DNA of 19,585 bases from a bacterium (GCA_044868695.1 JBIOWP010000139.1:1-19585), one strand, 5' to 3'. Positions 2,854 through 19,585 are shown, counted from the first letter of the stretch. Numbers and translations: made by a program. Notes: generated from the letters alone by a model not told the origin.

Positions 2854-2866
2854 AGTTTCGCGGCTA

Positions 2867-3020
2867 ACCTTCTCCCATCCGGACTGTACCGTCGGCCCCG
2901 GCATCACACCGGATCCACCGCTACCGTAAGTACGGCTGCGGGTCGCGGGCTCCCCCGTTCACGTGAACGAAGTTACCGCCGGTCGGGAATTGGCGTATGC
3001 CTCACCCTGCCCCGAAGGTC
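2867..3020 (-). ncRNA. FMN riboswitch (RFN element)
   Basis: Minus strand reads CTTCGGGGCAGGGTGA...AATTCCCGACCGGCGGT...AGCCCGCGACCC...GGATCCGGTG...CCGGGGCCGACGGTACAGTCCGGATGGGAGAAGG, matching the RFN consensus; lies upstream of ribU. Confidence 0.96.
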
Positions 3021-3042
3021 GCGTATGTGGTTGTCAAGATTC

Positions 3043-7849: not shown

Positions 7850-8323
7850 TCACATCGCTTCGCGCAGTTCGACGACGACACCGTCCGTCAGGCGCTGCAG
7901 GACCCGCGGCTCGATCGGGAACACACTGCTGGGAGTTCCCGCGGCCGCGTACACGACGTCGAACCCCATGAGATCGCGGTCGATGAACACCGGCAGCGTC
8001 CGCGCGTGTGCAACCGGCGGGACGCCGCCGATTGCGTACCCGGTCGCGTCTTGGACCGCGGATGCGCCGGCCTTCTGTACGGTCTGGACGCCGGCGGCGC
8101 GCGCCAGCTTGGCCGTATCCACCCGGTTGGCGCCCGACGCCAGCACGAGCACCGGACGGCCGTCTGCCAGAAACACGAGCGACTTCACGATCTGGGCGAG
8201 GGTCGTCCCGACCGCCGCGGCGGCGTCGCGGGCGGTCCTGGTGCCCTGCGGGAACTCGAGAACCTGCACATTCACGCCGGCCTGACGCAGGACGGCTGCG
8301 ACGCGATCGGACGGAGACGGCAT
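7850..8323 (-). CDS. YbaK/EbsC family aminoacyl-tRNA deacylase
   Basis: TRTARDAA, QIVKSLVF, TGYAIGGVPP and YAAAG motifs. Confidence 0.92.
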   Translation of the reverse strand: MPSPSDRVAAVLRQAGVNVQVLEFPQGTRTARDAAAAVGTTLAQIVKSLVFLADGRPVLVLASGANRVDTAKLARAAGVQTVQKAGASAVQDATGYAIGGVPPVAHARTLPVFIDRDLMGFDVVYAAAGTPSSVFPIEPRVLQRLTDGVVVELREAM

Positions 8324-8349
8324 ACGGTGACTCTCATGATATCATTGGC

Positions 8350-8378
8350 TTGACGAACTTACGTCAGAATGGTACAAA
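8350..8378 (+). promoter_or_regulatory. Putative sigma70 promoter with overlapping palindromic operator
   Basis: TTGACG (8350-8355), 17-nt spacer ending TGG, TACAAA (8373-8378). Inverted repeat TGACG-N6-CGTCA (8351-8366) covers the -35. Confidence 0.5.
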
Positions 8379-8391
8379 AGGTTCCAATACT

Positions 8392-8472
8392 ATGCGCGAT
8401 TCCCGCTATGCCCCACGAAGCTGCATCTGTCTTCGGCGGAGGCAGACGATGCCTTCGCTGCGGCCCGCCTAG
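8392..8472 (+). CDS. Putative 26-aa leader peptide containing Cys-Ile-Cys
   Basis: ATG 8392 to TAG 8472: MRDSRYAPRSCICLRRRQTMPSLRPA. It lies in the long 5' leader of the downstream operon; the RBS is weak. Confidence 0.35.
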   Translation: MRDSRYAPRSCICLRRRQTMPSLRPA

Positions 8473-8547
8473 CCCCGCGAAGTTCCGTCTGCATTCCGCA
8501 TCCCGCTAGATCTTCTACCGGATAGAACATCTGTCTGGTTCACCAGA
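8416..8547 (+). promoter_or_regulatory. Structured 5' leader with mutually exclusive hairpins (attenuator-like)
   Basis: Helix A 8416-8457 (CGAAG/CTTCG, GCATC/GATGC, inner stem). Competing helix B 8436-8499 (GCGGA/TCCGC, GCAGACG/CGTCTGC, CTTCGC/GCGAAG). Further hairpins at 8508-8532 and 8534-8547. Confidence 0.5.
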
Positions 8548-8576
8548 TCGTTTGTCACACGCTGAGGAGGGTTCCC

Positions 8577-9116
8577 ATGTCCAGGGCGTCGCACTCGCTC
8601 AACGGCGTCGACGTTACCACCGTGGTCAACCTGGCCGCCCGGATGGATACCGACCCACAGGCCGCCCGGGAACTGTCGGCGTACGCGCGCGGGGTCCGGG
8701 TGCGCTGGATCTCCGGCCTGCACAGCCAGGCGTACACCCGGGACGTGCCGCCGCACGCCTACGACGAGCCGCAGTGGCTGGGCGGGACGAACCGCGCGAT
8801 GGCGGCCAGCGAGGCCCTCCTCGGGGCGATCGGCGGCTGTATCGCCGTGGGTTTCGCGGCCAACGCCTCTCTGCGCGAAGTGCCCGTGCATGAGCTCGAG
8901 GTCGAAGTCGAAGGGACGATCGACCTCCCGTCATTTTTCGGCATCCGCGAAGGGAATCCGGGGTACACGCAGATCCGCGTCACGATCTTCACGCGCTGCG
9001 ACGCTCCGCCGGCGCTGCTAGACGAGATCGCCTACCGCGCGGTCCAGCTCTCGCCGGTGGCCAACACGGTGCGCCGCCCGGTCGACGTGCAGTACACAGT
9101 CCGCCCCACCACCTGA
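8577..9116 (+). CDS. OsmC-like family protein
   Basis: AGGAGG RBS; LNGVDV N-terminus, DEPQWLGGTN, EALLGAIGGC, VEVEGTIDL, NPGYTQIRV, SPVANTVRRPV. Confidence 0.88.
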   Translation: MSRASHSLNGVDVTTVVNLAARMDTDPQAARELSAYARGVRVRWISGLHSQAYTRDVPPHAYDEPQWLGGTNRAMAASEALLGAIGGCIAVGFAANASLREVPVHELEVEVEGTIDLPSFFGIREGNPGYTQIRVTIFTRCDAPPALLDEIAYRAVQLSPVANTVRRPVDVQYTVRPTT

Positions 9117-9127
9117 GGAGGACATCG

Positions 9128-10192
9128 ATGGACGCTCACGACCAGAGGCCGGACGGCAAGACGGGGACGGTAAACGGGGAGCAGGCCGCGCCGGCCGGAC
9201 GCGAGGCCGCGCGGTTGGAGCCCGACGGCAGCCTGCTCCTCACCGGACTGCCGCTGCCGCCGGTGCCGGCCCGCGTGCAACCGGAGGGGATCGTCTTCCG
9301 CGGGGCGCCCGGCCCGGCCACCGGCCTCGTGATGCCGTACTCGATCACCCAGCGTGAACTGGTCTGGGCGGACAACCTCCATGAGCTCATTGAGCGCGCC
9401 AAGCGGCGCCAGTGGAACGCCAGCACCGATATCCCGTGGGAGGAAGGGCGGAAGGTCGCCCCTGATCTGGAGGAGGCGCTGGCCCGCGTGCTCACGTGGA
9501 TGCTGCAGCAGGAGTACGCGGCCTGGTACCTGCCGGCCAAGTTCGTGGGGCAGATCCACCCGGCGTACACTGAGGTCGGACTGTTCCTCTCGACACAGGT
9601 CGTCGACGAAGCTCGCCACGTCGAGGCGTTTCTTAAGCGGCTGTACCTCAACGGCGCGGGGCTGCGCGAGGTGACCGCCGGCACGGAGAGCTCCATCAAG
9701 GGGCTGCTCATGCAGGACGATTTCGCCCGCGCCAGCTTTCTGCTGCACGTGCTGGGCGAAGGGACCTTCACGGATCTCTTCCACCTGCTGATTGAGATCG
9801 CCCCGGATGAGGCGACGCGCCAGATCATGGTGCGCGCCCTGGAGGACGAGGCCCGCCACGTGGCCTACGGCGTCGGCCGCCTCTCCACGCAGCTGGCGGC
9901 GCAGCGCGACCCGGATGTCCTCGGACAGCAGTTCGTTGAAGCGCTGGAAGCCCGCCTCTCATTTACCTACGAGGTCTCCGGGCTGCCTCCGAACGTGCAG
10001 GAAGCGCTGGTGATCCTGGCCGGCGGCGGCCGGGGTCCGATGGCGGTGGCCCGGGGCGTGGGCCGCGTGCGCCAGTTCATCGATGAGCTGAACCGCAACC
10101 GCAAGCAGCGGCTGCTTCAGTCGGGCTTCAGCGAGCAGATCGCCGAGCACATCTCCACCCTGCACGTCCGCAGCAGCGGAGGACTGATGTGA
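9128..10192 (+). CDS. Ferritin-like di-iron carboxylate protein
   Basis: AGGAGG RBS; QWNASTDIPW, QQEYAA, DEARHVEAF, LGEGTF and EDEARHVAYG give the E...ExxH...E...ExxH ligand pattern. Confidence 0.85.
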   Translation: MDAHDQRPDGKTGTVNGEQAAPAGREAARLEPDGSLLLTGLPLPPVPARVQPEGIVFRGAPGPATGLVMPYSITQRELVWADNLHELIERAKRRQWNASTDIPWEEGRKVAPDLEEALARVLTWMLQQEYAAWYLPAKFVGQIHPAYTEVGLFLSTQVVDEARHVEAFLKRLYLNGAGLREVTAGTESSIKGLLMQDDFARASFLLHVLGEGTFTDLFHLLIEIAPDEATRQIMVRALEDEARHVAYGVGRLSTQLAAQRDPDVLGQQFVEALEARLSFTYEVSGLPPNVQEALVILAGGGRGPMAVARGVGRVRQFIDELNRNRKQRLLQSGFSEQIAEHISTLHVRSSGGLM

Positions 10193-10653
10193 GCACGTCA
10201 CCGGTCGGCGCCGCGATCGCCGCCGACGAACGGACGCGGATCCGCTGGGTGCTGGAGCACTGCAAGACCGTCGCCGTGGTCGGGCTCTCCAGCAACGCCT
10301 TCAAGGACAGCTACATCGTGGCGCATCATCTCCATCGAAACGGCTACGACGTGATCCCGATCAACCCGACAGCACCGGCCATCCTGGGGCGGCCGGCGTA
10401 CCCGGCGCTCTCGGCGCTGCCCGCCGATGTCGCGGAGCACGTGCAGCTGGTGCTCGTCTTCCGCCCGAGCGACGAGGTCCCGGGGATCGTGGACGCTGCG
10501 CTCACGCTCCCCCATCTGCTCGCCATCTGGACGCAGAAGGGCATCGTCCACGAGGCTGCGCTCGCGCGGGCCCGCGCGGCGGGGCGCATCGTCATTGTCG
10601 ACCGCTGCATCCGGACCCAGCATCTGTTCATGAAGTTCGGCGAGGCTGTGTAA
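10189..10653 (+). CDS. CoA-binding protein (YccU-like)
   Basis: GTGA overlap with the upstream stop; TVAVVGLS, VIPINP, VFRPS, IWTQKG, DRCI. Confidence 0.88.
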   Translation: MSTSPVGAAIAADERTRIRWVLEHCKTVAVVGLSSNAFKDSYIVAHHLHRNGYDVIPINPTAPAILGRPAYPALSALPADVAEHVQLVLVFRPSDEVPGIVDAALTLPHLLAIWTQKGIVHEAALARARAAGRIVIVDRCIRTQHLFMKFGEAV

Positions 10654-10655
10654 GC

Positions 10656-11846
10656 GTGCACGTTCAAACGCTGGTCGGACTGCTGGTGATCTCCGGACTA
10701 GGTGTCCTGACGTTGGCTGGCAGCCGCGTTGATCCGGCGTTCGGGATATTCGCTGCGCTGGGCATCGGCATCGGGGCCACGCTCCAGCGCAGTCGCTTTT
10801 GCTTCAATTCCGCCTTCCGTGACTTGATCCAGTTTCGGTCGGGCCGGACGATGAAGGGCGTCATCGTCGGTATGGCCGTCGCGACCGCCGGGTTTGGGGT
10901 CCACATGCGCAACCTCCTGCCGAACGCGTCGCTCGGTCCGATCGCTCCAGAGGCGCACGCCGTCCCCCTCAGCATTGCACTCCTCGCCGGCGGGCTGCTC
11001 TTCGGGATGGGGATGGTGATTGCCGGCGGCTGCACATCGGGATCCCTGTACCGCATCGGCGAAGGTTACCTGGCGTCCTGGGTCAGCCTTGCCGGCATCC
11101 TCGCCGGCCTGGTCCTGGTCAGCCACCACTGGAACTGGTGGTGGCAGCACGTGATCCGCGGTGCGCCGGTGGTGTGGCTGCCGCGGTATCTCGGATATGG
11201 CGGAGCGGTGGCCACAACGCTCGTGGGCCTCGCGTTGGCGTATGGTCTGGTGTTGTGGATTGAATCCCTCGGCGGTGTCGGCGTGCAGGACTACGCGGCG
11301 CCTGCTGGCGCTCGAACGTTCCACGAGAAACTCCATGAGATTGTGGCCGGCGTCTTCGGCCGCGGGTGGCCTGCGCCGGTGGGCGGCGCCGCCCTTGGGT
11401 TCCTGAACGTGCTGTCCTACAATGCACATATGCCGTGGCGCGTCGTCGGCGAACTGTCCCGGTGGGGCAATGCCGCGGCGGCTGCGGTCGGCCTGGGGCC
11501 CGGCACGCTACAAGGGACCGAAGAGTTGTCTGCCTGCGTGGTGACGACCGGCGGCGGGGTGCTGACGCACGGCTTCCTGCTCAACGTCGGCCTCGTCGGT
11601 GGCTCACTCTCTGCCGCATTGCTGGCGCACGAGTTCAAGTGGCGCGTGGCGCGCCGCCCCATCCGCTACGTGCAGTCTCTGGGAGGCGGCGTGCTGATGG
11701 GGTACGGATCCGGGCTGGCGCTGGGCTGCACCGCGGGAGCATTGTTCTCCGCGGTACCGTCGCTGGCGGTCAACGGCTGGGTCTTTGCGGCGACGCTGGC
11801 CGCCGGTGCGTGGATCGGCGTGCGCGTGATTGAGAGAATACCGTGA
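10656..11846 (+). CDS. YeeE/YedE family sulfur/selenium-compound transporter
   Basis: Multi-TM protein; LQRSRFCFNSAFRD, FGMGMVIAGGCTSGSLYRIGEG, GGVLMGYGSGLALGCTAG (three conserved Cys motifs). Confidence 0.93.
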   Translation: MHVQTLVGLLVISGLGVLTLAGSRVDPAFGIFAALGIGIGATLQRSRFCFNSAFRDLIQFRSGRTMKGVIVGMAVATAGFGVHMRNLLPNASLGPIAPEAHAVPLSIALLAGGLLFGMGMVIAGGCTSGSLYRIGEGYLASWVSLAGILAGLVLVSHHWNWWWQHVIRGAPVVWLPRYLGYGGAVATTLVGLALAYGLVLWIESLGGVGVQDYAAPAGARTFHEKLHEIVAGVFGRGWPAPVGGAALGFLNVLSYNAHMPWRVVGELSRWGNAAAAAVGLGPGTLQGTEELSACVVTTGGGVLTHGFLLNVGLVGGSLSAALLAHEFKWRVARRPIRYVQSLGGGVLMGYGSGLALGCTAGALFSAVPSLAVNGWVFAATLAAGAWIGVRVIERIP

Positions 11847-11871
11847 AGACCGAGGATGAGGAGGCGGCTCC

Positions 11872-12108
11872 GTGCTCCTGGATGTCCGGGGCGAGACCTG
11901 CCCGTATCCGATGAAGAAAGCCATGGAGGCGATGGAACGCCTGCCGGAGGGTGAAGTCCTCGACGTGCTGGTGGACCATCCGCCGGCCATCGACACAATT
12001 CGCATGGCCGCCAACCGCTATGGCTTTCGCATGGACGTGGAACCGGCCGGCAGCGGAGAGTGGCGGATCCGTCTCCAGCGACGAACCGGAAAGGGCGTGA
12101 GGACGTGA
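11872..12108 (+). CDS. TusA/SirA/YedF family sulfur carrier
   Basis: AGGAGG RBS; LDVRGETCPYP, GEVLDVLVDHPPA, GEWRIRL. Confidence 0.93.
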   Translation: MLLDVRGETCPYPMKKAMEAMERLPEGEVLDVLVDHPPAIDTIRMAANRYGFRMDVEPAGSGEWRIRLQRRTGKGVRT

Positions 12109-13121
12109 CGCGGATAATCGCGATCCTGACGGTAGCGTTGAGCCTGGCGCTTGTGGGCAGCGCCACGGGCCAGCGACCGGCGGGCGCGCAGGTGATTGTC
12201 CTGAGCAACTCCTCGCCGCATATCACCGTCATCGAGACGCGGGCGCATCAGGTGGTCCGCACCGCGGATCTCCCCCGGATGACCACGTGGACCTGGAACG
12301 ATGACAATAACACCTTCGACGGCAAGCATCTGTGGTTGGGGCTGCGCAATCCCGACACCAGCGACGTCGAGGTCATCCTGCTCGACCTCGATACGCTGGA
12401 GGTGAGCCGGCGGATCCCGCTGGGACAGGACCGCACCACGCTGTATATCGGCAAACCCTCCCGGCGCGGGACGGTCCTGGTCAGCAAGCACGCCTCGGGC
12501 GAGCTGGTCCGGATCGATGCTTCGAGCTTCGCCGTCGACACGGTGAAGCTGCCCGTGAACGACGGGGTCGCCTGCGTCATCGACGTTGTCACGACCGGGC
12601 CCGGGGCTCTGGAGCGCGCGTTTGTGCCGACCGACAACGGCAACACGGTTCTGAGCGTCGATACCGAGAGCCGGCAGGTGGTGGGCACGGTGCCGTTCGC
12701 CGGCAGCCGGCCGTTCATGCTGACCGCCTCGCCGGACGGCAGCCGCGTGTGGGTGCAGGAACGGGCGGGCAGCGCTATGACGGTGCTGAATGCCCGAACA
12801 CTGGACGTCGTCAAGCGCATCCCCACGGCGCAGACGCCCATCATCGGGACCTTCAGTCCCGACGGCAGGGTGCACTACACGGGACACGCGGGAGACGTGA
12901 CCGTCATCGCGCACGACACGGCGACGTTCAGAGAACTCTGGCGGGCGCGCGTGGGCAGTAACCCGGATAAGGTCGGCGTCCATCCCAGCGGCGCCTTTGT
13001 GTACGCGACCGTGTCCCGGGAAGGCCAGCTGGCGGTGATTGAAGCCCGGACAGGCAAGGTGGTGGCGCGGGTCCCACTCGGCACGAACCCATCCGGCCTC
13101 TTCGTCCGGCGGCTCCCCTAA
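12105..13121 (+). CDS. Secreted YVTN/YncE-type beta-propeller protein
   Basis: GTG 12105 overlaps the upstream TGA; signal peptide MTRIIAILTVALSLALVG; blades SPDGSRVWV, FSPDGRVHYT, HPSGAFVYAT, VPLGTNPSG. Confidence 0.85.
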   Translation: MTRIIAILTVALSLALVGSATGQRPAGAQVIVLSNSSPHITVIETRAHQVVRTADLPRMTTWTWNDDNNTFDGKHLWLGLRNPDTSDVEVILLDLDTLEVSRRIPLGQDRTTLYIGKPSRRGTVLVSKHASGELVRIDASSFAVDTVKLPVNDGVACVIDVVTTGPGALERAFVPTDNGNTVLSVDTESRQVVGTVPFAGSRPFMLTASPDGSRVWVQERAGSAMTVLNARTLDVVKRIPTAQTPIIGTFSPDGRVHYTGHAGDVTVIAHDTATFRELWRARVGSNPDKVGVHPSGAFVYATVSREGQLAVIEARTGKVVARVPLGTNPSGLFVRRLP

Positions 13122-13122
13122 C

Positions 13123-13803
13123 ATGAAGTGGCGGACGCGGTGGCTGGTCCTCGTGCTCCTCGCGCTGGCCGTTGGTCTGGGGGCTCAGGTCATGATCGCG
13201 CGGTCTCACATTGCCGCGCTCGACCAGGACCGCGCGGTGCTGGAAGCGCGGGTGCGCCGGCTCTCGTACAACACCGCGTCAGGCGGCGGGGTGAACGTCA
13301 AGATGATGCCCGATCCCGTGCCGGGCCAGCCGGCGGTGCCGCTGCCGGAAGTGTTCAGCTTCGACCGGAACCACGCGATGTGCCGGGTGGACACCAACCC
13401 ACGTGCCTTCAAGATGGCCACGTTTCAGCGGGGCGAGGTCGTCGTCCCGGCGGGCCGCTTCTTCATGTCCATGGCGGCCACGACCATTGAGCAATACGCC
13501 GTGTCGACGCATCCGGACGGCCGGCGGACGGTGCGGATGCGCGGAGGGGTAAGTTGTGCCACAGAGGTCGGGCAGGCCAACGTCACCATCGGATCGCGCG
13601 GCGCGTCAGAACACGCGACCTATCTCATCGAGGCGATCGACGCGGGGATCGGAGGCGGTCAGGCCGGGGATTCGTTCGCGTTTACCGTGTTCTTCGATCC
13701 CGCGGAGGCCCCGGTCAATTACAGCCTGTTTGGACCGAAGTTTACCTTCACCGGCCAGATGGTGGAGGGCGAGATTACGATTGTTGACCCGACCATGCCC
13801 TAA
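13123..13803 (+). CDS. Hypothetical exported or membrane-anchored protein
   Basis: ATG 13123 is 1 nt after the upstream stop; N-terminal hydrophobic helix, short coiled-coil-like segment, then a beta-rich Met-rich domain with two Cys. Family not recognised. Confidence 0.75.
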   Translation: MKWRTRWLVLVLLALAVGLGAQVMIARSHIAALDQDRAVLEARVRRLSYNTASGGGVNVKMMPDPVPGQPAVPLPEVFSFDRNHAMCRVDTNPRAFKMATFQRGEVVVPAGRFFMSMAATTIEQYAVSTHPDGRRTVRMRGGVSCATEVGQANVTIGSRGASEHATYLIEAIDAGIGGGQAGDSFAFTVFFDPAEAPVNYSLFGPKFTFTGQMVEGEITIVDPTMP

Positions 13804-13837
13804 GTGACCTAAGGGGCGACGGGACCGCGGGCGGCTC

Positions 13838-14248
13838 TCATCGCGCGGAGAGCGTGCGGTGGACCGAGCGCATGCAGGCACCCGCGACCGCGCGGAGCCC
13901 GGCGGCCTCGGCGCGCCCGGCAGCCTCTTCGTTCTCAGCCCCCGGCTGCATCCACACAATTTTGGCGCCGATCGCGATCGCGTCCTCAACGACGGCGGGG
14001 ACTTCTTCGGGTCGGCGGAAAATCTGCACCACATCAATGCGTTCGGGGACGTCGCGGAGGCTCTTGTACGCCTGCTCGCCGAGCACGGTCTGGATCTTCG
14101 GGTTGACCGGGATGATCCGGTATCCTGCCTGTTGGAGATAGCCCGCGATCTCGTAACTATCGCGGTCGGGGTTGTCAGAGAGCCCGACCACGGCGATCGT
14201 CGTCGTGCTCTTGAGGATCTCCCGCGCGGCCTCCCACGTCAGCTCCAC
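13838..14248 (-). CDS. CoA-binding protein (YccU-like)
   Basis: GTG 14248 is 7 nt after GGAGGT; TIAVVGLSDNPDRDSY, IIPVNP, IFRRPE, VWMQPG, GACMR. Confidence 0.9.
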   Translation of the reverse strand: MELTWEAAREILKSTTTIAVVGLSDNPDRDSYEIAGYLQQAGYRIIPVNPKIQTVLGEQAYKSLRDVPERIDVVQIFRRPEEVPAVVEDAIAIGAKIVWMQPGAENEEAAGRAEAAGLRAVAGACMRSVHRTLSAR

Positions 14249-15428
14249 TTCGCCCACCTCCTAGCTCCATCGCACGCACCGCATAGATATACAGGCCCGC
14301 GTTCCACGCGAACGGGACCTCCGCCTGATAGAAACGCCGGTTCAGCATCATCCCATCAGATTCAAACACCTCGGCCACCGCGTTGCGAGCCGCGTACCAG
14401 CCCCCAATCCGGGCGAGGTCGGCCATGGCCGCATCCCGTTGTCCCCGGCGAAACTTGTTGATGGCGTGCAGCGTGCCCAACCAGGGCCAGATCAGCGTGC
14501 GATGATAGTCCGGGATGCCGGCCAGAAAGTAGAAGGGAAACACCTGCCAGACCGGATACACCGGGTCGCACGTCCGCAGGGGCGTGTCGCGGTCAAGGCC
14601 TCGCGTTTCGATAAATCGCAGGATCGACGCGGCCTCCGCATCCGTTGCCACACCGAACAAGATGGCCAGCACGTTGCCGTCTGAGCAAAAGCCGCCGTGC
14701 CGCGATCCCCGGATCCAGTCGGCAAAATACGTCCCGTTCCAAAATACCCTGCGGAGCGCCTCCGCCGTCGCCGCGGCCGCGTCTGCAAATCTGCGGGCAT
14801 CAGACGCATGCCCGAGCCACTCTTTGATGGCCATACACGCCCGCAGGCCCTCGTAGTAAGTCACATTCAGGTAGAAGACTTTGTCCTTCTTTAGGATTGA
14901 ATCCATCCACCCCGCCAGGTAGCGGCTCTCCACCAGGCCATCGTGGTCGCGGTCCTGCCTCATCAGCCAAGCCATGGCGCGGTCCATCGCCGGTTCAAAG
15001 TGAGCGCAGAAGTCCATGTCGTGTGTACGCGCAAAATACTCGCGCGCCGCGATGACAAAGAGCGCGCTCGGGTCAAGCGGATCGGCAAAGACCGTTCCCG
15101 CGCGGAACAGCGCCTTCGGGTGCAAGAGGCGGGTGTGATAGTGGCCGAAGGTGTGGCCGAGAAACTCGACGCGCACGGGAAGTTCGCCCGAGGCCGTCTG
15201 AAAGCGGGTGAACGTCTCGAGATGCGCCCTCACCTGTTCGACGTCCCCGAGCGCCAGCGCGCCCAGCGATGCCCAGAACCCATCGCGCGCCCAGTAGGCG
15301 TTGAAGTGCAGGCGGCCCGCGACAATACCGTCGGGATTGTAGCAGGCACGCAGATCGCGGACGGCGATCCGGTAGGCTCGCTGGATCGTGTCGAGCGCGC
15401 CCGTCGCTGGCGCCGCAGGTGCTCTCAC
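14175..15428 (-). CDS. (alpha/alpha)6 glycoside hydrolase, glycogen-debranching / amylo-alpha-1,6-glucosidase-like
   Basis: GTG 15428 overlaps the pgl stop (GTGA); HFNAYWARDG, DRDHDGLVE, WMDS, YHRTLIWPW, FAWNAG. The track's N-terminal extension to 15791 lies inside pgl. Confidence 0.8.
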   Translation of the reverse strand: MRAPAAPATGALDTIQRAYRIAVRDLRACYNPDGIVAGRLHFNAYWARDGFWASLGALALGDVEQVRAHLETFTRFQTASGELPVRVEFLGHTFGHYHTRLLHPKALFRAGTVFADPLDPSALFVIAAREYFARTHDMDFCAHFEPAMDRAMAWLMRQDRDHDGLVESRYLAGWMDSILKKDKVFYLNVTYYEGLRACMAIKEWLGHASDARRFADAAAATAEALRRVFWNGTYFADWIRGSRHGGFCSDGNVLAILFGVATDAEAASILRFIETRGLDRDTPLRTCDPVYPVWQVFPFYFLAGIPDYHRTLIWPWLGTLHAINKFRRGQRDAAMADLARIGGWYAARNAVAEVFESDGMMLNRRFYQAEVPFAWNAGLYIYAVRAMELGGGRSGADVGGRAGDPQEHDDDRRGRAL

Positions 15429-17674: not shown

Positions 17675-18949
17675 ATGGCTGCGCGACCGAGCGTTTCTCT
17701 GCACCGTCTCCGAGAACGTCTGGAGCGGTTAGGCGCTATCGGACGGGATCCCGCGGGCGGCGTGACTCGTGTCCCCTTCTCACCTCCGCATGTCGAGGCA
17801 GTGCGGGCCGTCTCCCAGATGATGCGTGAGGCCGGGCTGGAACCGGGTGTGGACGAGTTCGGCAACCTGATCGGCACTCGCGCAGGCGAGCGCACCGCGG
17901 CGGTCCTGGCAGGCTCGCACCTCGACACCGTGCCTCAGGGCGGGATCTTCGACGGCGCCCTGGGCGTGGTGGCGGCCGTTGAAGCAGCCCAGGCGCTGCA
18001 CGACGCCGGCCGGACGCTCCGGCACAATCTGGCTGTGGTGGCGTTTGCCGATGAGGAGGGCCATGCCTTCGGCGTCGGCACCCTGTCGTCGCGGCTTCTG
18101 GTGGGAGAGGTTGACCGCAGCCGGGTCGACACGCTGCGCGACCGGACCGGACGGGCGCTGCGCGACGCCCTCAGGACGCGCGAGCACGGCCTGCCGCCAG
18201 CGCGCGTTCCTGATCGCGTGTCGGTGTATCTGGAACTGCATGTCGAACAGGGGCCGGTCCTGGAGCAGACGGGCCGCACCGTGGCTGCGGTGGAGTCTAT
18301 CGTCGGGATCGTCAGGACGACGGCGGTGATCGAAGGGGTCGCCTCGCACGCCGGCACGACGCCGATGACATCGCGGGCCGACGCGGTGGTGGGCGCGGCG
18401 GAGTTGGTCCTGGCGGTACGCGAGCTCGCGCTGGCGCAGCGCGGCCATGCGGTCGGGACCGTCGGCCAGGCGCGCGTGCTCCCGGGTGCCGCGAATGTCA
18501 TTCCCGGCCGGGTCGAGCTCAGTGTGGAACTGCGGAGTGTGAGCGATCAAACCCTCGACGCGCTGCGGCGCGCTGTGGAGGACCGGGCGCAGGACATCAC
18601 CCGCCGCAGCGGCCTGAAAATTACGCTTGCACCGTGGGACCACTCCCCCGCGGTGCCGATGGACCCCGGCGTGCGCGAGGCCGTGCTCGGAGCCATCGAG
18701 CGGTCCGGCCATCCACGGGTGACGCTGCCCAGCTGGGCCGGCCATGACGCCGGCGTCCTAGCGCGCCATGTGCGGGCGGGGATGATCTTTGTCGTTAGTG
18801 CCGGCGGTCTCAGTCACTCACCGCGGGAATCTACACGCTGGGAAGCCGTCGAGACCGGTGCGCAGGTGCTGCTCGAAACGTTGATTGCTCTCGATGCGAA
18901 CGACGGGAAGGACCGCGGCCTGCCGCTGGCCTACGCGGCGCGCCGATGA
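17675..18949 (+). CDS. M20 family Zn-dependent amidohydrolase (allantoate amidohydrolase / N-carbamoyl-amino acid hydrolase)
   Basis: GSHLDTVPQGGIFDGALGV, DEEG, ELHVEQGP, HAGTTPM, GHDA, GGLSHSPRE. Start placed at ATG 17675. Confidence 0.93.
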   Translation: MAARPSVSLHRLRERLERLGAIGRDPAGGVTRVPFSPPHVEAVRAVSQMMREAGLEPGVDEFGNLIGTRAGERTAAVLAGSHLDTVPQGGIFDGALGVVAAVEAAQALHDAGRTLRHNLAVVAFADEEGHAFGVGTLSSRLLVGEVDRSRVDTLRDRTGRALRDALRTREHGLPPARVPDRVSVYLELHVEQGPVLEQTGRTVAAVESIVGIVRTTAVIEGVASHAGTTPMTSRADAVVGAAELVLAVRELALAQRGHAVGTVGQARVLPGAANVIPGRVELSVELRSVSDQTLDALRRAVEDRAQDITRRSGLKITLAPWDHSPAVPMDPGVREAVLGAIERSGHPRVTLPSWAGHDAGVLARHVRAGMIFVVSAGGLSHSPRESTRWEAVETGAQVLLETLIALDANDGKDRGLPLAYAARR

Positions 18950-19420
18950 CCCGTCTCGCCGACCGCATCGCCGCGGCCAACGCCGGCGCGCTGGACCGGA
19001 TCGCCCATGCCTCTCCGGTCCTCGCCGGCGTCCGCGGGGCGGGAGCGCTGATTCCCGCGCTGTCCGGCCGCGTCCTGCTGCACGCAGGACCGCCGGTGGA
19101 GCCGGCCGCGATGTGCGGGCCGATGCGCGGCGCCGCGGTCGGGGCGATCCTGCTGGAAGGGTGGGCGCGCTCGCCGGAGGAGGCGGCCTCACTGCTGGAC
19201 GCCGGCAAGATCACCCTGCACTGCACCCACGACCACGGCGCGGTCGGGCCGATGGCCGGCGTCATCTCGCCGTCGATGCCGTTGTTCGAGGTGCGCGACG
19301 CTGCGACCGGCGCGTCGGCCGGCTGTCCCATCAACGAAGGCATCGGCGCCGTGCTGCGGTTCGGCGCGAACGATCCTGCGGTCCTGGATCGGCTACGGTG
19401 GATCCGCGACGTGCTGGCCC
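18946..19420 (+). CDS. DUF1116 / YlbE-like protein, N-terminal part, interrupted by an inversion
   Basis: ATGA overlap with the M20 stop; LLHAGPP, MCGPMRGA, HGAVGPMAGVISPSMP, NEGIGAVLRFGA. Not in the ORF track. Confidence 0.8.
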
Positions 19421-19585
19421 GCGCCATCAGCGGCAGGAGCGGCAGGCCATCCGCCCGCCGCAGCGCCGAGTCCAGCGCCGGGGCCAGCACGTCGCGGATC
19501 CACCGCAGCCGGTCCAGGACCGCAGGATCGTTCGCGCCGAACCGCAGCACGGCGCCGATGCCTTCGTTGACGGGACAGCCGGCCG
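19316..19585. repeat. 105-bp fold-back inverted duplication with 60-nt spacer at the window end
   Basis: 19481-19585 is the reverse complement of 19316-19420 with 3 mismatches (19330, 19389, 19395). Confidence 0.95.

Follow-up and report, generated by a model that had tools for sequence, protein, structure and literature searches.

A predicted cysteine-sensing leader before a seven-gene bacterial locus merged from two separately conserved modules

Introduction

Does a compact run of seven genes constitute one dedicated pathway, and under which condition is it expressed? The question is raised by a stretch of bacterial DNA of 19,585 nt (GCA_044868695.1, JBIOWP010000139.1:1-19585, hereafter the window), in which seven co-directional open reading frames (ORFs) occupy positions 8577..13803 of the plus strand, with intergenic gaps of 11, −4, 2, 25, −4, and 1 nt. 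They encode an OsmC-like protein, a ferritin-like protein with a predicted di-metal site, a CoA-binding protein, a YeeE/YedE-family membrane protein, a TusA-family protein, and two predicted exported proteins. A preliminary description of the locus had read them as a dedicated pathway for a sulfur or selenium compound. As judged from related genomes, the seven-gene set is a lineage-specific merger of two blocks, osmC-ferritin-CoA-binding (module A) and yeeE-tusA-propeller-unknown (module B), which are joined behind one predicted promoter and one leader with a Cys-Ile-Cys motif. We consider it likely that the merged locus works as an operon for scavenging sulfur and that the stalling of ribosomes under cysteine shortage would switch it on. 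Comparison of sequences reveals the leader ORF with its paired RNA segments, its recurrence ahead of sulfur genes throughout the phylum, both modules, and an exchangeable transporter slot after the first of them.

Results

Modules A and B are conserved separately

The genes of the two modules are arranged as follows:

8577..9116, plus strand: module A gene 1, OsmC-like protein (Pfam OsmC, 55 bits; closest solved structure 2opl)
9128..10192, plus strand: module A gene 2, ferritin-like protein of 354 aa, with predicted di-metal ligands E129, E161, H164, E211, E241, and H244
10189..10653, plus strand: module A gene 3, CoA_binding_2 protein (Pfam, 110 bits), found after the ferritin gene in loci L001-L008
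10656..11846, plus strand: module B gene 1, YeeE/YedE-family membrane protein (Pfam Sulf_transp, 201 bits)
11872..12108, plus strand: module B gene 2, TusA-family protein of 78 aa with a CPYP motif and a single cysteine (Pfam TusA, 65 bits)
12105..13121, plus strand: module B gene 3, YVTN/YncE-like beta-propeller, predicted to be exported (Pfam/NCBIfam), found after tusA in 10 other loci
13123..13803, plus strand: module B gene 4 (gene 7 of the operon), predicted membrane-anchored protein with an N-terminal helix and a beta-barrel-like domain (model pLDDT 86)

These coordinates bear out seven co-directional genes with overlaps or gaps of at most 25 nt, as initially described, and the family assignments made at that stage stand, with Pfam matches above cut-off for OsmC, CoA_binding_2, Sulf_transp, TusA, and a Cytochrom_D1/YNCE propeller. 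The two DEARH motifs in gene 2 and the CPYP motif of the TusA-family protein were likewise found, and a single N-terminal hydrophobic segment is predicted for both the propeller and gene 7, in agreement with the two exported proteins that had been called.

The conservation of the set as a whole is a different matter. A complete module A recurs in seven loci (L001-L007), and L008 has the ferritin and CoA-binding genes at the start of a contig, while module B is found without module A in L044-L047 and L049. The survey of the phylum comprised 94 genomes, which are incomplete, and most of the loci read extend only 1.5 kb per side; among these genomes, the ferritin gene was found in 21, a yeeE match in 28, and gene 7 in 9. 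The window genome, G000, is the only one in which yeeE adjoins the CoA-binding gene among the loci read. Nine other genomes have both the ferritin gene and a close yeeE, always on different contigs; in G007 and G013, modules A and B themselves lie on different contigs of one genome, and in G005 and G015 module A is present while the search for yeeE gave nothing. Since the modules thus occur separately, even within one genome, a dedicated, conserved seven-gene pathway was not borne out: the seven-gene set was seen in no other genome read. Nor did the neighbourhood check for recurring OsmC, TusA, YeeE, and CoA-binding partners across phyla recover the full set, an outcome that the same description had named as speaking against its proposal. 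Around the ferritin family in 80 metagenome loci, osmC was found in L133 only and the CoA-binding gene in L133 and L142 only, both of them close relatives; yeeE, tusA, and gene 7 were found in none of the 80.

What follows module A varies. L001, L002, and L006 have an SsuA-family ABC system there (the SsuA_fam match is above cut-off in L001 and L006), L005 and L008 have a thiolase-like gene, read from the sequence, L007 has an opposite-strand aminotransferase, and L004 has nothing; the gene next to the CoA-binding gene in G013, G007, and G001 is ssuA or a tRNA. Because the flanking genes of L004 and L006 match those of the window, we regard this position as one exchangeable slot behind module A. 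A second CoA_binding_2 gene (13838-14257, minus strand), which shares 39% identity with gene 3, converges on the end of the operon and has syntenic counterparts in L004 and L006. The genomes that encode the SsuA-family transporter (L001:2349-4252, L006:8513-11204) yielded neither SsuD nor TauD nor a sulfite reductase, so that sulfonate use of the ssuEADCB/tauABCD kind is not supported for the relatives with ssuABC in the slot. Module B starts directly after tRNA-Leu(CAG) in G007 and G013 (L044:3052-3138 and L045:1837-1923). An OsmC homologue (P0409, 93%) and a gene-7 homologue (P0289, 72%) are both listed with a longest contig of 224,620 bases and may share a contig in another genome.

The junction between the CoA-binding gene and yeeE (genes 3/4), at which the two modules meet, is spanned by contigs from two other runs, X2 and X4, of the same study as the possible source run of the window. 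The X2 contig covers 10456-11441 with 1 difference to the window, and the X4 contig covers 9329-11270 with 37 differences, corresponding to a different strain. Terminator-like sites in the region 8300-13900 numbered 0, compared with 2.6 expected from shuffles, and no U-tract terminator was found there.

The window genome has 2.59 Mb, is 95% complete, and has a GC content of 67%. Its ferritin-like protein is about 80% identical to proteins of Armatimonadetes bacterium 13_1_40CM_64_14 and Bacillati bacterium ANGP1. According to the available text of the respective studies, family 13-1-40CM-64 is assigned to the phylum CSP1-3 (PMC11962464), which has been named Sysuimicrobiota (PMC11604079), and we infer that the window genome belongs to this phylum. 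A search of a plasmid collection gave 4 matches, weak and partial.

One Cys-Ile-Cys leader precedes many sulfur-linked operons

Alignment of the DNA upstream of osmC revealed a conserved promoter and a conserved block that the preliminary description had not mentioned. In the window, this region contains:

8350..8378, plus strand: predicted sigma-70-type promoter (−35 box 8350-8355, 17-nt spacer, −10 box 8373-8378), with its implied transcript start about 7 nt before the leader ATG
8392..8472, plus strand: 26-codon leader ORF with Pro-Arg-Ser-Cys-Ile-Cys, a predicted cysteine-sensing attenuator peptide (alignment, frame test, and phylum pattern count)
8423..8570, plus strand: leader RNA with predicted mutually exclusive helices (Cys-codon segment 8423-8431, segment 2 8436-8448, segment 2b 8450-8460, segment 3 8486-8499, Shine-Dalgarno 8564-8570)

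Both promoter boxes align in the window, L003, L004, and L006, and from them we infer the transcription start; a strict-consensus promoter scan did not pick this promoter up.

How far does this leader extend beyond the window? A DNA search gave matches in 40 of the 94 genomes. In 31 copies (30 loci and C154 of G000), the next gene encodes DUF4395 in 13 cases, a rhodanese in 9, and OsmC in 4; a sulfite reductase, a URO-D-like protein, an ATP-grasp protein, and an unknown gene of a ferritin cluster follow once each, and one copy lies at a contig end (Pfam was run on one representative per kind of target). The codon pattern Pro-Arg-x-Cys-Ile-Cys was found in 87/94 genomes, with 246 matches versus 67 for a reversed control. 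From 150 listed pattern matches, 21 more were picked by hand, of which 16 were leader-like and 5 were background (including C93 of G000). The 16 leader-like ones precede genes for ATP-grasp proteins (6), rhodanese (3, with 1 more further downstream), NMT1/SsuA-like proteins (3), DUF4395 (2), and a family-5 binding protein (1).

While these first copies had been chosen by their DNA likeness, yeeE and sulfite-reductase loci were then chosen by protein as an independent test. Outside G000 there are 22 close yeeE loci; 4 lack upstream DNA, leaving 18 usable ones. The leader is present at 12 of the 18, in 4 cases directly before yeeE and in 8 before rhodanese-yeeE-tusA. At two further loci, Cys-Ile-Cys is encoded in other codons and in frame with yeeE (Met-Arg-Cys-Ile-Cys in G007 and G001; lost in G013). 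With an RNA model of the leader, matches at E under 0.03 were obtained for 5 of 12 sulfite-reductase loci, compared with 0 matches in 18 metagenome loci of the distant ferritin clade, 4 selA/selD loci, and 5 cysK/cysM loci. Altogether, in a search that covered this phylum and the 80 metagenome loci, the leader sits upstream of sulfur-linked genes, namely those for rhodanese, sulfite reductase, YeeE, SsuA-like proteins, and DUF4395. Modules A and B are each found behind the same leader in other genomes; therefore, G000 appears to have merged both under one copy.

Several copies deserve mention for their own sake. In L004 (7340-7447), the promoter is kept and the whole leader is gone before osmC, which makes this locus a natural, predicted constitutive variant. 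Three more copies occur in G000: near C154 5466 (minus strand) before DUF4395, at C119 966 (plus strand) before an ATP-grasp/RimK-like gene, and at the start of C85 (minus strand) at a contig end; those of C119 and C85 have an inserted hairpin after the Cys codons. The ATP-grasp protein without a name that is frequently encoded first behind the leader (L242:302-1291, L083:1644-2705, and others) might, as a guess, make a thiol or a gamma-glutamyl peptide.

The leader reads as a short ORF with predicted alternative RNA helices

In a frame test with 50 distinct leader copies, the Cys frame had an upstream start and a stop within 20 codons in 47/50 copies, compared with 1/50 and 2/50 for the other frames. 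Third positions vary in the Pro and Arg codons that precede the Cys pair. The cysteines are not consecutive (Cys-Ile-Cys in 30/30), and the second Cys codon is TGT in 30/30, a codon that accounts for 491 of the 3133 Cys codons in long ORFs of G000. In window-like copies, the ORF begins 3-7 nt downstream of the predicted transcript start.

Segment 2 of the leader RNA has three alternative partners in the window: the Cys codons (−12.2 kcal/mol), the leader's own tail (−18.9 kcal/mol), and segment 3, which lies after the stop codon (−35.6 kcal/mol). Helix 2:3 covaries: its pairing reaches 91.5%, 15 of the changes in it are double-sided, and 0/500 shuffles and no slid control scored as high, a comparison that carries the tool's caveat about the relatedness of the copies. 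Helix 2:2b is the RNAalifold consensus, and helix 1:2 is conserved but showed no covariation. No Rfam family reached its gathering threshold at the leader. An RNA switch in the leader is therefore plausible. Because no terminator was seen, control by such a switch would be translational or Rho-dependent.

Module B encodes a YeeE-TusA pair and two predicted exported proteins

Cys49, Cys126, and Cys358 of the YeeE-family protein align with the RICF, AGGC, and GGCN relay cysteines of Spirochaeta YeeE (6leo), and a further cysteine, Cys294, is conserved; the three relay cysteines are described in the available text of PMC11073785. CPxP is present in 20 of the 21 listed alignments of TusA homologues, the exception starting after the motif. 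With the relay cysteines and CPxP kept, sequence comparison supports the YeeE-TusA import pair of the preliminary description, although the NCBIfam cut-offs for TsuA/TsuB were not reached (127/400, 80/645, and 26/147.5 bits).

Gene 7 has 624 homologues, and Cys87 and Cys145 are invariant in the 36 that were aligned. No family name was found for it in Pfam, NCBIfam, or Atlas, and its fold gave eight-strand barrel matches at background level (best Z 8.7). It is missing from some genomes with the propeller (G004 and G010). From their position, the propeller and gene 7 could perform a capture or conversion step outside the membrane.

Module A combines a predicted di-iron protein with an OsmC-like protein

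Gene 2 has only sub-threshold Ferritin/DUF455 matches in Pfam, and a sequence search of the PDB returned nothing under E 0.1. The six predicted ligands are invariant in 37 close homologues and conserved in 37-43 of the 43 sequences of a wide alignment. The structure model (pLDDT 91.6) is closest to R2lox (4hr0; Z 21.6, rmsd 3.2, 254 aligned residues), tied with the aldehyde-deformylating-oxygenase-like 6d9f (Z 21.5), at 17-19% identity, and gives Z of about 11 with small ferritins or Mn-catalases. With its four-helix core and its E...ExxH...E...ExxH set, the modelled protein fits the ferritin-like di-iron carboxylate enzymes. R2lox has a Mn/Fe cofactor, a fatty-acid ligand, and a Val-Tyr crosslink. 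By NCBIfam, gene 2 is not an R2lox, as PRK08326 gave 28 bits versus a cut-off of 194; the protein has its own family, with 327 representatives at E up to 1e-10.

Members of a clade with 55% identity occur with a rhodanese and/or a DUF4395-thioredoxin plus a cupin, in two genomes inside a CysM/CBS/MoaD/MoeZ/Rrf2 cluster. Among distant members of the family, 14 of 56 scanned proteins have a fused TusA-like domain (PF01206 at E up to 0.001, 3 at or above cut-off). A widespread three-gene operon, found at L108:3996-7146 and in 27 other metagenome loci, encodes a FadE16/Rv1679-like dehydrogenase, an Rv1680-like binding protein, and a TusA-like/ferritin fusion, with selB as the next gene in 5 loci; no functional description of it was found in the open-access literature.

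The two-cysteine peroxidases of the OsmC/Ohr family have a peroxidatic Cys and a resolving Cys before a C-terminal PV motif. In 32 aligned relatives of the OsmC-like protein, Cys88 is present in 32/32, Cys141 in 28/32, and Ser159 in 32/32. Position 159 is presumably the site of the resolving cysteine, where the protein thus fails the two-Cys pattern; Cys141 might be an alternative second cysteine.

The genome context points to reduced sulfur

Which sulfur source would such an operon address? No match to the sulfite reductase family PF01077 was found in 22/22 genomes of the window's family, and sulfite reductase being absent from these results, the likely source is reduced or sulfane sulfur. 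PAPS reductase had no match in G000 and marginal matches only in 3/5 genomes. For the sulfonate route, no SsuD over cut-off and no TauD were found in 5/5 genomes (77-95% complete). Persulfide dioxygenase (NF040641) was not found over cut-off in 5 genomes, a result that is uninformative. The ferritin-like protein was also considered as a substitute for sulfite reductase and rejected, as the distribution does not fit: 7/21 ferritin genomes also have PF01077.

A cluster on C107 of G000 (49900-55500), also present at L025:11140-16268, encodes a cystathionine gamma-lyase/synthase, a MoaD-like carrier, CBS, an SbnI-like serine kinase, CysM, a Mec+-like protein, and Rrf2. This content suggests cysteine synthesis from free O-phosphoserine.

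Other features of the window

An FMN riboswitch (Rfam RF00050) is located at 2863-3023 on the minus strand, before an ECF-type RibU-like gene at 2195-2782. At 18831-19585, near-identical sequence is present on both strands, so that the ORFs 18946-19584 (plus strand) and 18831-19583 (minus strand) are mirror images, possibly an assembly fold-back.

Discussion

A probable sulfur-scavenging operon

The results can be combined into the following mechanism. A ribosome paused at the Cys codons would mask the Cys-codon segment (segment 1), helix 2:3 would be favoured, and the ribosome-binding site of osmC would be freed. In the manner of YeeE-YeeD, YeeE would then relay thiosulfate, or a different compound with sulfane sulfur, to the cysteine of TusA. 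The two exported proteins would act outside the cell, where other yeeE operons of the phylum provide a rhodanese for which a signal peptide is predicted. Given that no sulfite reductase was detected, the imported sulfur could feed the CysM/CBS cluster of the genome. The most speculative step concerns the di-iron protein, which might break a C-S bond oxidatively in a small thiol or thioether, so that sulfide or sulfane sulfur is released. The released sulfur would pass to a cysteine carrier, Cys88 of the OsmC-like protein here and a rhodanese in the sister clade, in parallel with YeeE and not necessarily downstream of it. This reaction, with its cysteine carrier as acceptor, was chosen because sulfite is unusable without a reductase and because the fold relatives of gene 2 are O2-using enzymes, which we take to act on small or hydrophobic ligands; it is the likeliest single reaction for the di-iron protein and still a tentative one, about as likely as peroxide defence. 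Somewhat more doubtful is the wider proposal that the di-iron protein founds an undescribed family of C-S-cleaving enzymes which, together with a cysteine carrier, provides cysteine without sulfite reductase, under a phylum-wide ribulon of one mobile leader.

Several observations weigh against this interpretation. The leader is absent at 4/18 usable yeeE loci and deleted before osmC in L004, and several copies precede the ATP-grasp gene, which has no clear sulfur role (6 of the 16 ORF-like copies, and also L083). Its Cys codons are nucleotide-invariant, possibly owing to RNA pairing or to a DNA-based selection of the copies, and its fixed Pro-Arg-x-Cys-Ile-Cys lacks the consecutive cysteines of the mycobacterial attenuators discussed below, as the available text depicts them. 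On stalling, the modelled accessibility of the Shine-Dalgarno sequence went up in 12/25 leaders and down in 3, and it is nearly flat in the window (0.51 free, 0.63 stalled, and 0.62 at the stop). Because this response is weak and mixed, the direction of control is suggested by the target genes and by the mycobacterial precedent. The available text of PMC11962464 reports that assimilatory sulfate reduction is common in these families, unlike the PF01077 search presented here. Within the ferritin family, a clade with 47% identity occurs with a cupin and a zinc dehydrogenase and has no leader; the distant homologues also lack a leader, their genes are preceded in 28 of the 34 loci with enough upstream DNA by those for a FadE16/Rv1679-like acyl-CoA dehydrogenase and for an Rv1680-like binding protein, and their degenerate TusA-like domain lacks CPxP (0/14 aligned proteins). 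Because these two clades have other partners and no leader, the sulfur link is firm for the two closer clades only and does not extend to the whole family.

Alternative explanations

Could module A instead be an oxidative-stress kit, in which an OsmC-type peroxidase and a di-iron peroxidase or oxidase are induced at a low thiol pool and release no sulfur? This is a real though improbable alternative, to which we give the same weight as to C-S cleavage. Membership in the OsmC family and the complete carboxylate-bridged site are in its favour, and so is the finding, in the available text of a study of Pelagibacter under sulfur limitation, that osmC was among the most induced transcripts, which was read as a peroxidase response (PMC5069961). 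However, position 159 is Ser in all 32 aligned OsmC-like proteins, the fold of gene 2 is nearer to R2lox and the aldehyde-deformylating-oxygenase-like protein than to small ferritins or Mn-catalases, and several genomes encode an uptake system behind module A.

One dedicated pathway of all seven genes, with capture of a compound by the exported proteins, import through YeeE, storage on TusA, and processing by the di-iron/OsmC pair, is unlikely. The tight co-directional spacing would be expected of it, some distant ferritin homologues carry a TusA-like domain, and both modules are found under the same leader in other genomes, so that the condition is shared. Yet the set lacks conservation: nine other genomes have the ferritin gene and a close yeeE on separate contigs, ssuA or a tRNA comes after the CoA-binding gene in G013, G007, and G001, and G005 and G015, which have module A, gave no yeeE match. 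The fused TusA-like domain, moreover, lacks CPxP.

Import of selenium by module B, in the manner of YedE/YedF and for the selenocysteine (Sec) machinery, is slightly less probable again. Of the two cargoes left open by the preliminary description, sulfur is supported by the Cys leader as an independent piece of regulatory evidence. The best NCBIfam models are indeed YedE/FdhT (159 bits) and YedF (50), ahead of TsuA (127) and YeeD (26), and G000 has selA, a Sec-containing selD, and tRNA-Sec. In the available text of PMC5322559, YedE/YedF are linked to SelD, and a DsrE-like domain is the signature of YedF. All these models remain far below cut-off, however (159/350, 40/200, 50/79, and 32/110 bits), and the 78-aa TusA protein has no DsrE-like domain. 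SelD was found in 5/5 genomes tested, and its presence does not discriminate, because selA is found in 77/94 genomes of the phylum versus 28 for yeeE; G090 (83% complete) has a close yeeE but no selA match. No sel gene was noticed among the ORFs listed for yeeE loci, and the Cys leader precedes most yeeE operons.

Least probable of all is a ligand-binding RNA or an operator with the Cys-Ile-Cys frame as a by-product, for which the almost invariant core nucleotides, including the third positions of the Ile and second Cys codons, and the conserved paired helices could be cited, but against which stand the frame test (47/50), the wobble in the preceding Pro-Arg codons, the use of different codons for Cys-Ile-Cys before yeeE in G007 and G001, shortened copies that keep the peptide and lose most of the RNA, and the lack of an Rfam family at gathering threshold there.

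Implications

The predicted sulfur-scavenging operon belongs to a phylum described, in the available text of PMC11962464, as dominant in deep soils. In this uncultured phylum, the leader offers a sequence-level readout of a sulfur-starvation regulon and assigns a condition to orphan genes, that is, those of the di-iron family, DUF4395, the ATP-grasp protein, the propeller, and the anchored barrel. It singles out a defined, foldable family of di-iron enzymes for a study of its reaction. If the interpretation holds, ribosome-based cysteine sensing, tested in mycobacteria, would extend to a Cys-x-Cys motif with switchable helices. On the more speculative proposal of a C-S-cleaving family, bacteria without sulfite reductase could make cysteine via sulfur freed by a di-iron protein together with a cysteine carrier.

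Comparison with known systems

No description of this gene set or of this leader was found in the open-access literature. New here, as far as sequence comparison goes, are one family of Cys-x-Cys leaders, which marks out a sulfur regulon throughout the phylum, and an unassigned di-iron family within that regulon. The parts have known counterparts, which we compare as far as the available texts of the cited studies describe them. R2lox (4hr0) and the aldehyde-deformylating-oxygenase-like 6d9f share with gene 2 the ferritin-like helical fold and the 4 Glu and 2 His ligands, whereas gene 2 is only 17-19% identical to them, belongs to its own family, and has different gene contexts. Module B resembles the YeeE-YeeD (TsuA-TsuB) system of thiosulfate uptake in its three membrane relay cysteines and its adjoining CPxP TusA-family partner (PMC11073785); it differs in staying below the TsuA/TsuB cut-offs, in the extra Cys294, and in the exported propeller and the anchored beta-barrel-like protein that follow. 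With YedE/YedF, the YeeE protein shares the membrane family and the best-scoring NCBIfam models (PMC5322559), but module B lacks a DsrE-like domain, does not reach the cut-offs, has no sel neighbours that were noticed, and has a Cys leader upstream.

Leader ORFs with Cys codons have been predicted before, such as uORFC-8-2 before cysS in Rhodobacterales (PMC8632094) and the cys leaders of Actinobacteria (PMC1262725). In uORFC-8-2, the Cys codons are in tandem, a U-rich terminator is present, and one gene is served, whereas the leader described here has no U-tract and many targets. The closest experimental precedent is the 'Cys ribulon' of mycobacteria, made up of polycysteine attenuators in leaderless small ORFs (sORFs), for example Ms5788A before Ms5788-cysA2 (bioRxiv 10.1101/834739). 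Both systems have a short ORF with Cys codons at the 5' end of the transcript, or close to it, and both use such ORFs ahead of more than one sulfur operon, among them that of a rhodanese. In both there is no intrinsic terminator, and RNA pairing, predicted for the leader described here, lies near the downstream ribosome-binding site. In the phylum studied here, by contrast, one homologous leader, known from its sequence, has been copied before many operons, with three alternative helices and with targets that include yeeE-tusA and the di-iron family.

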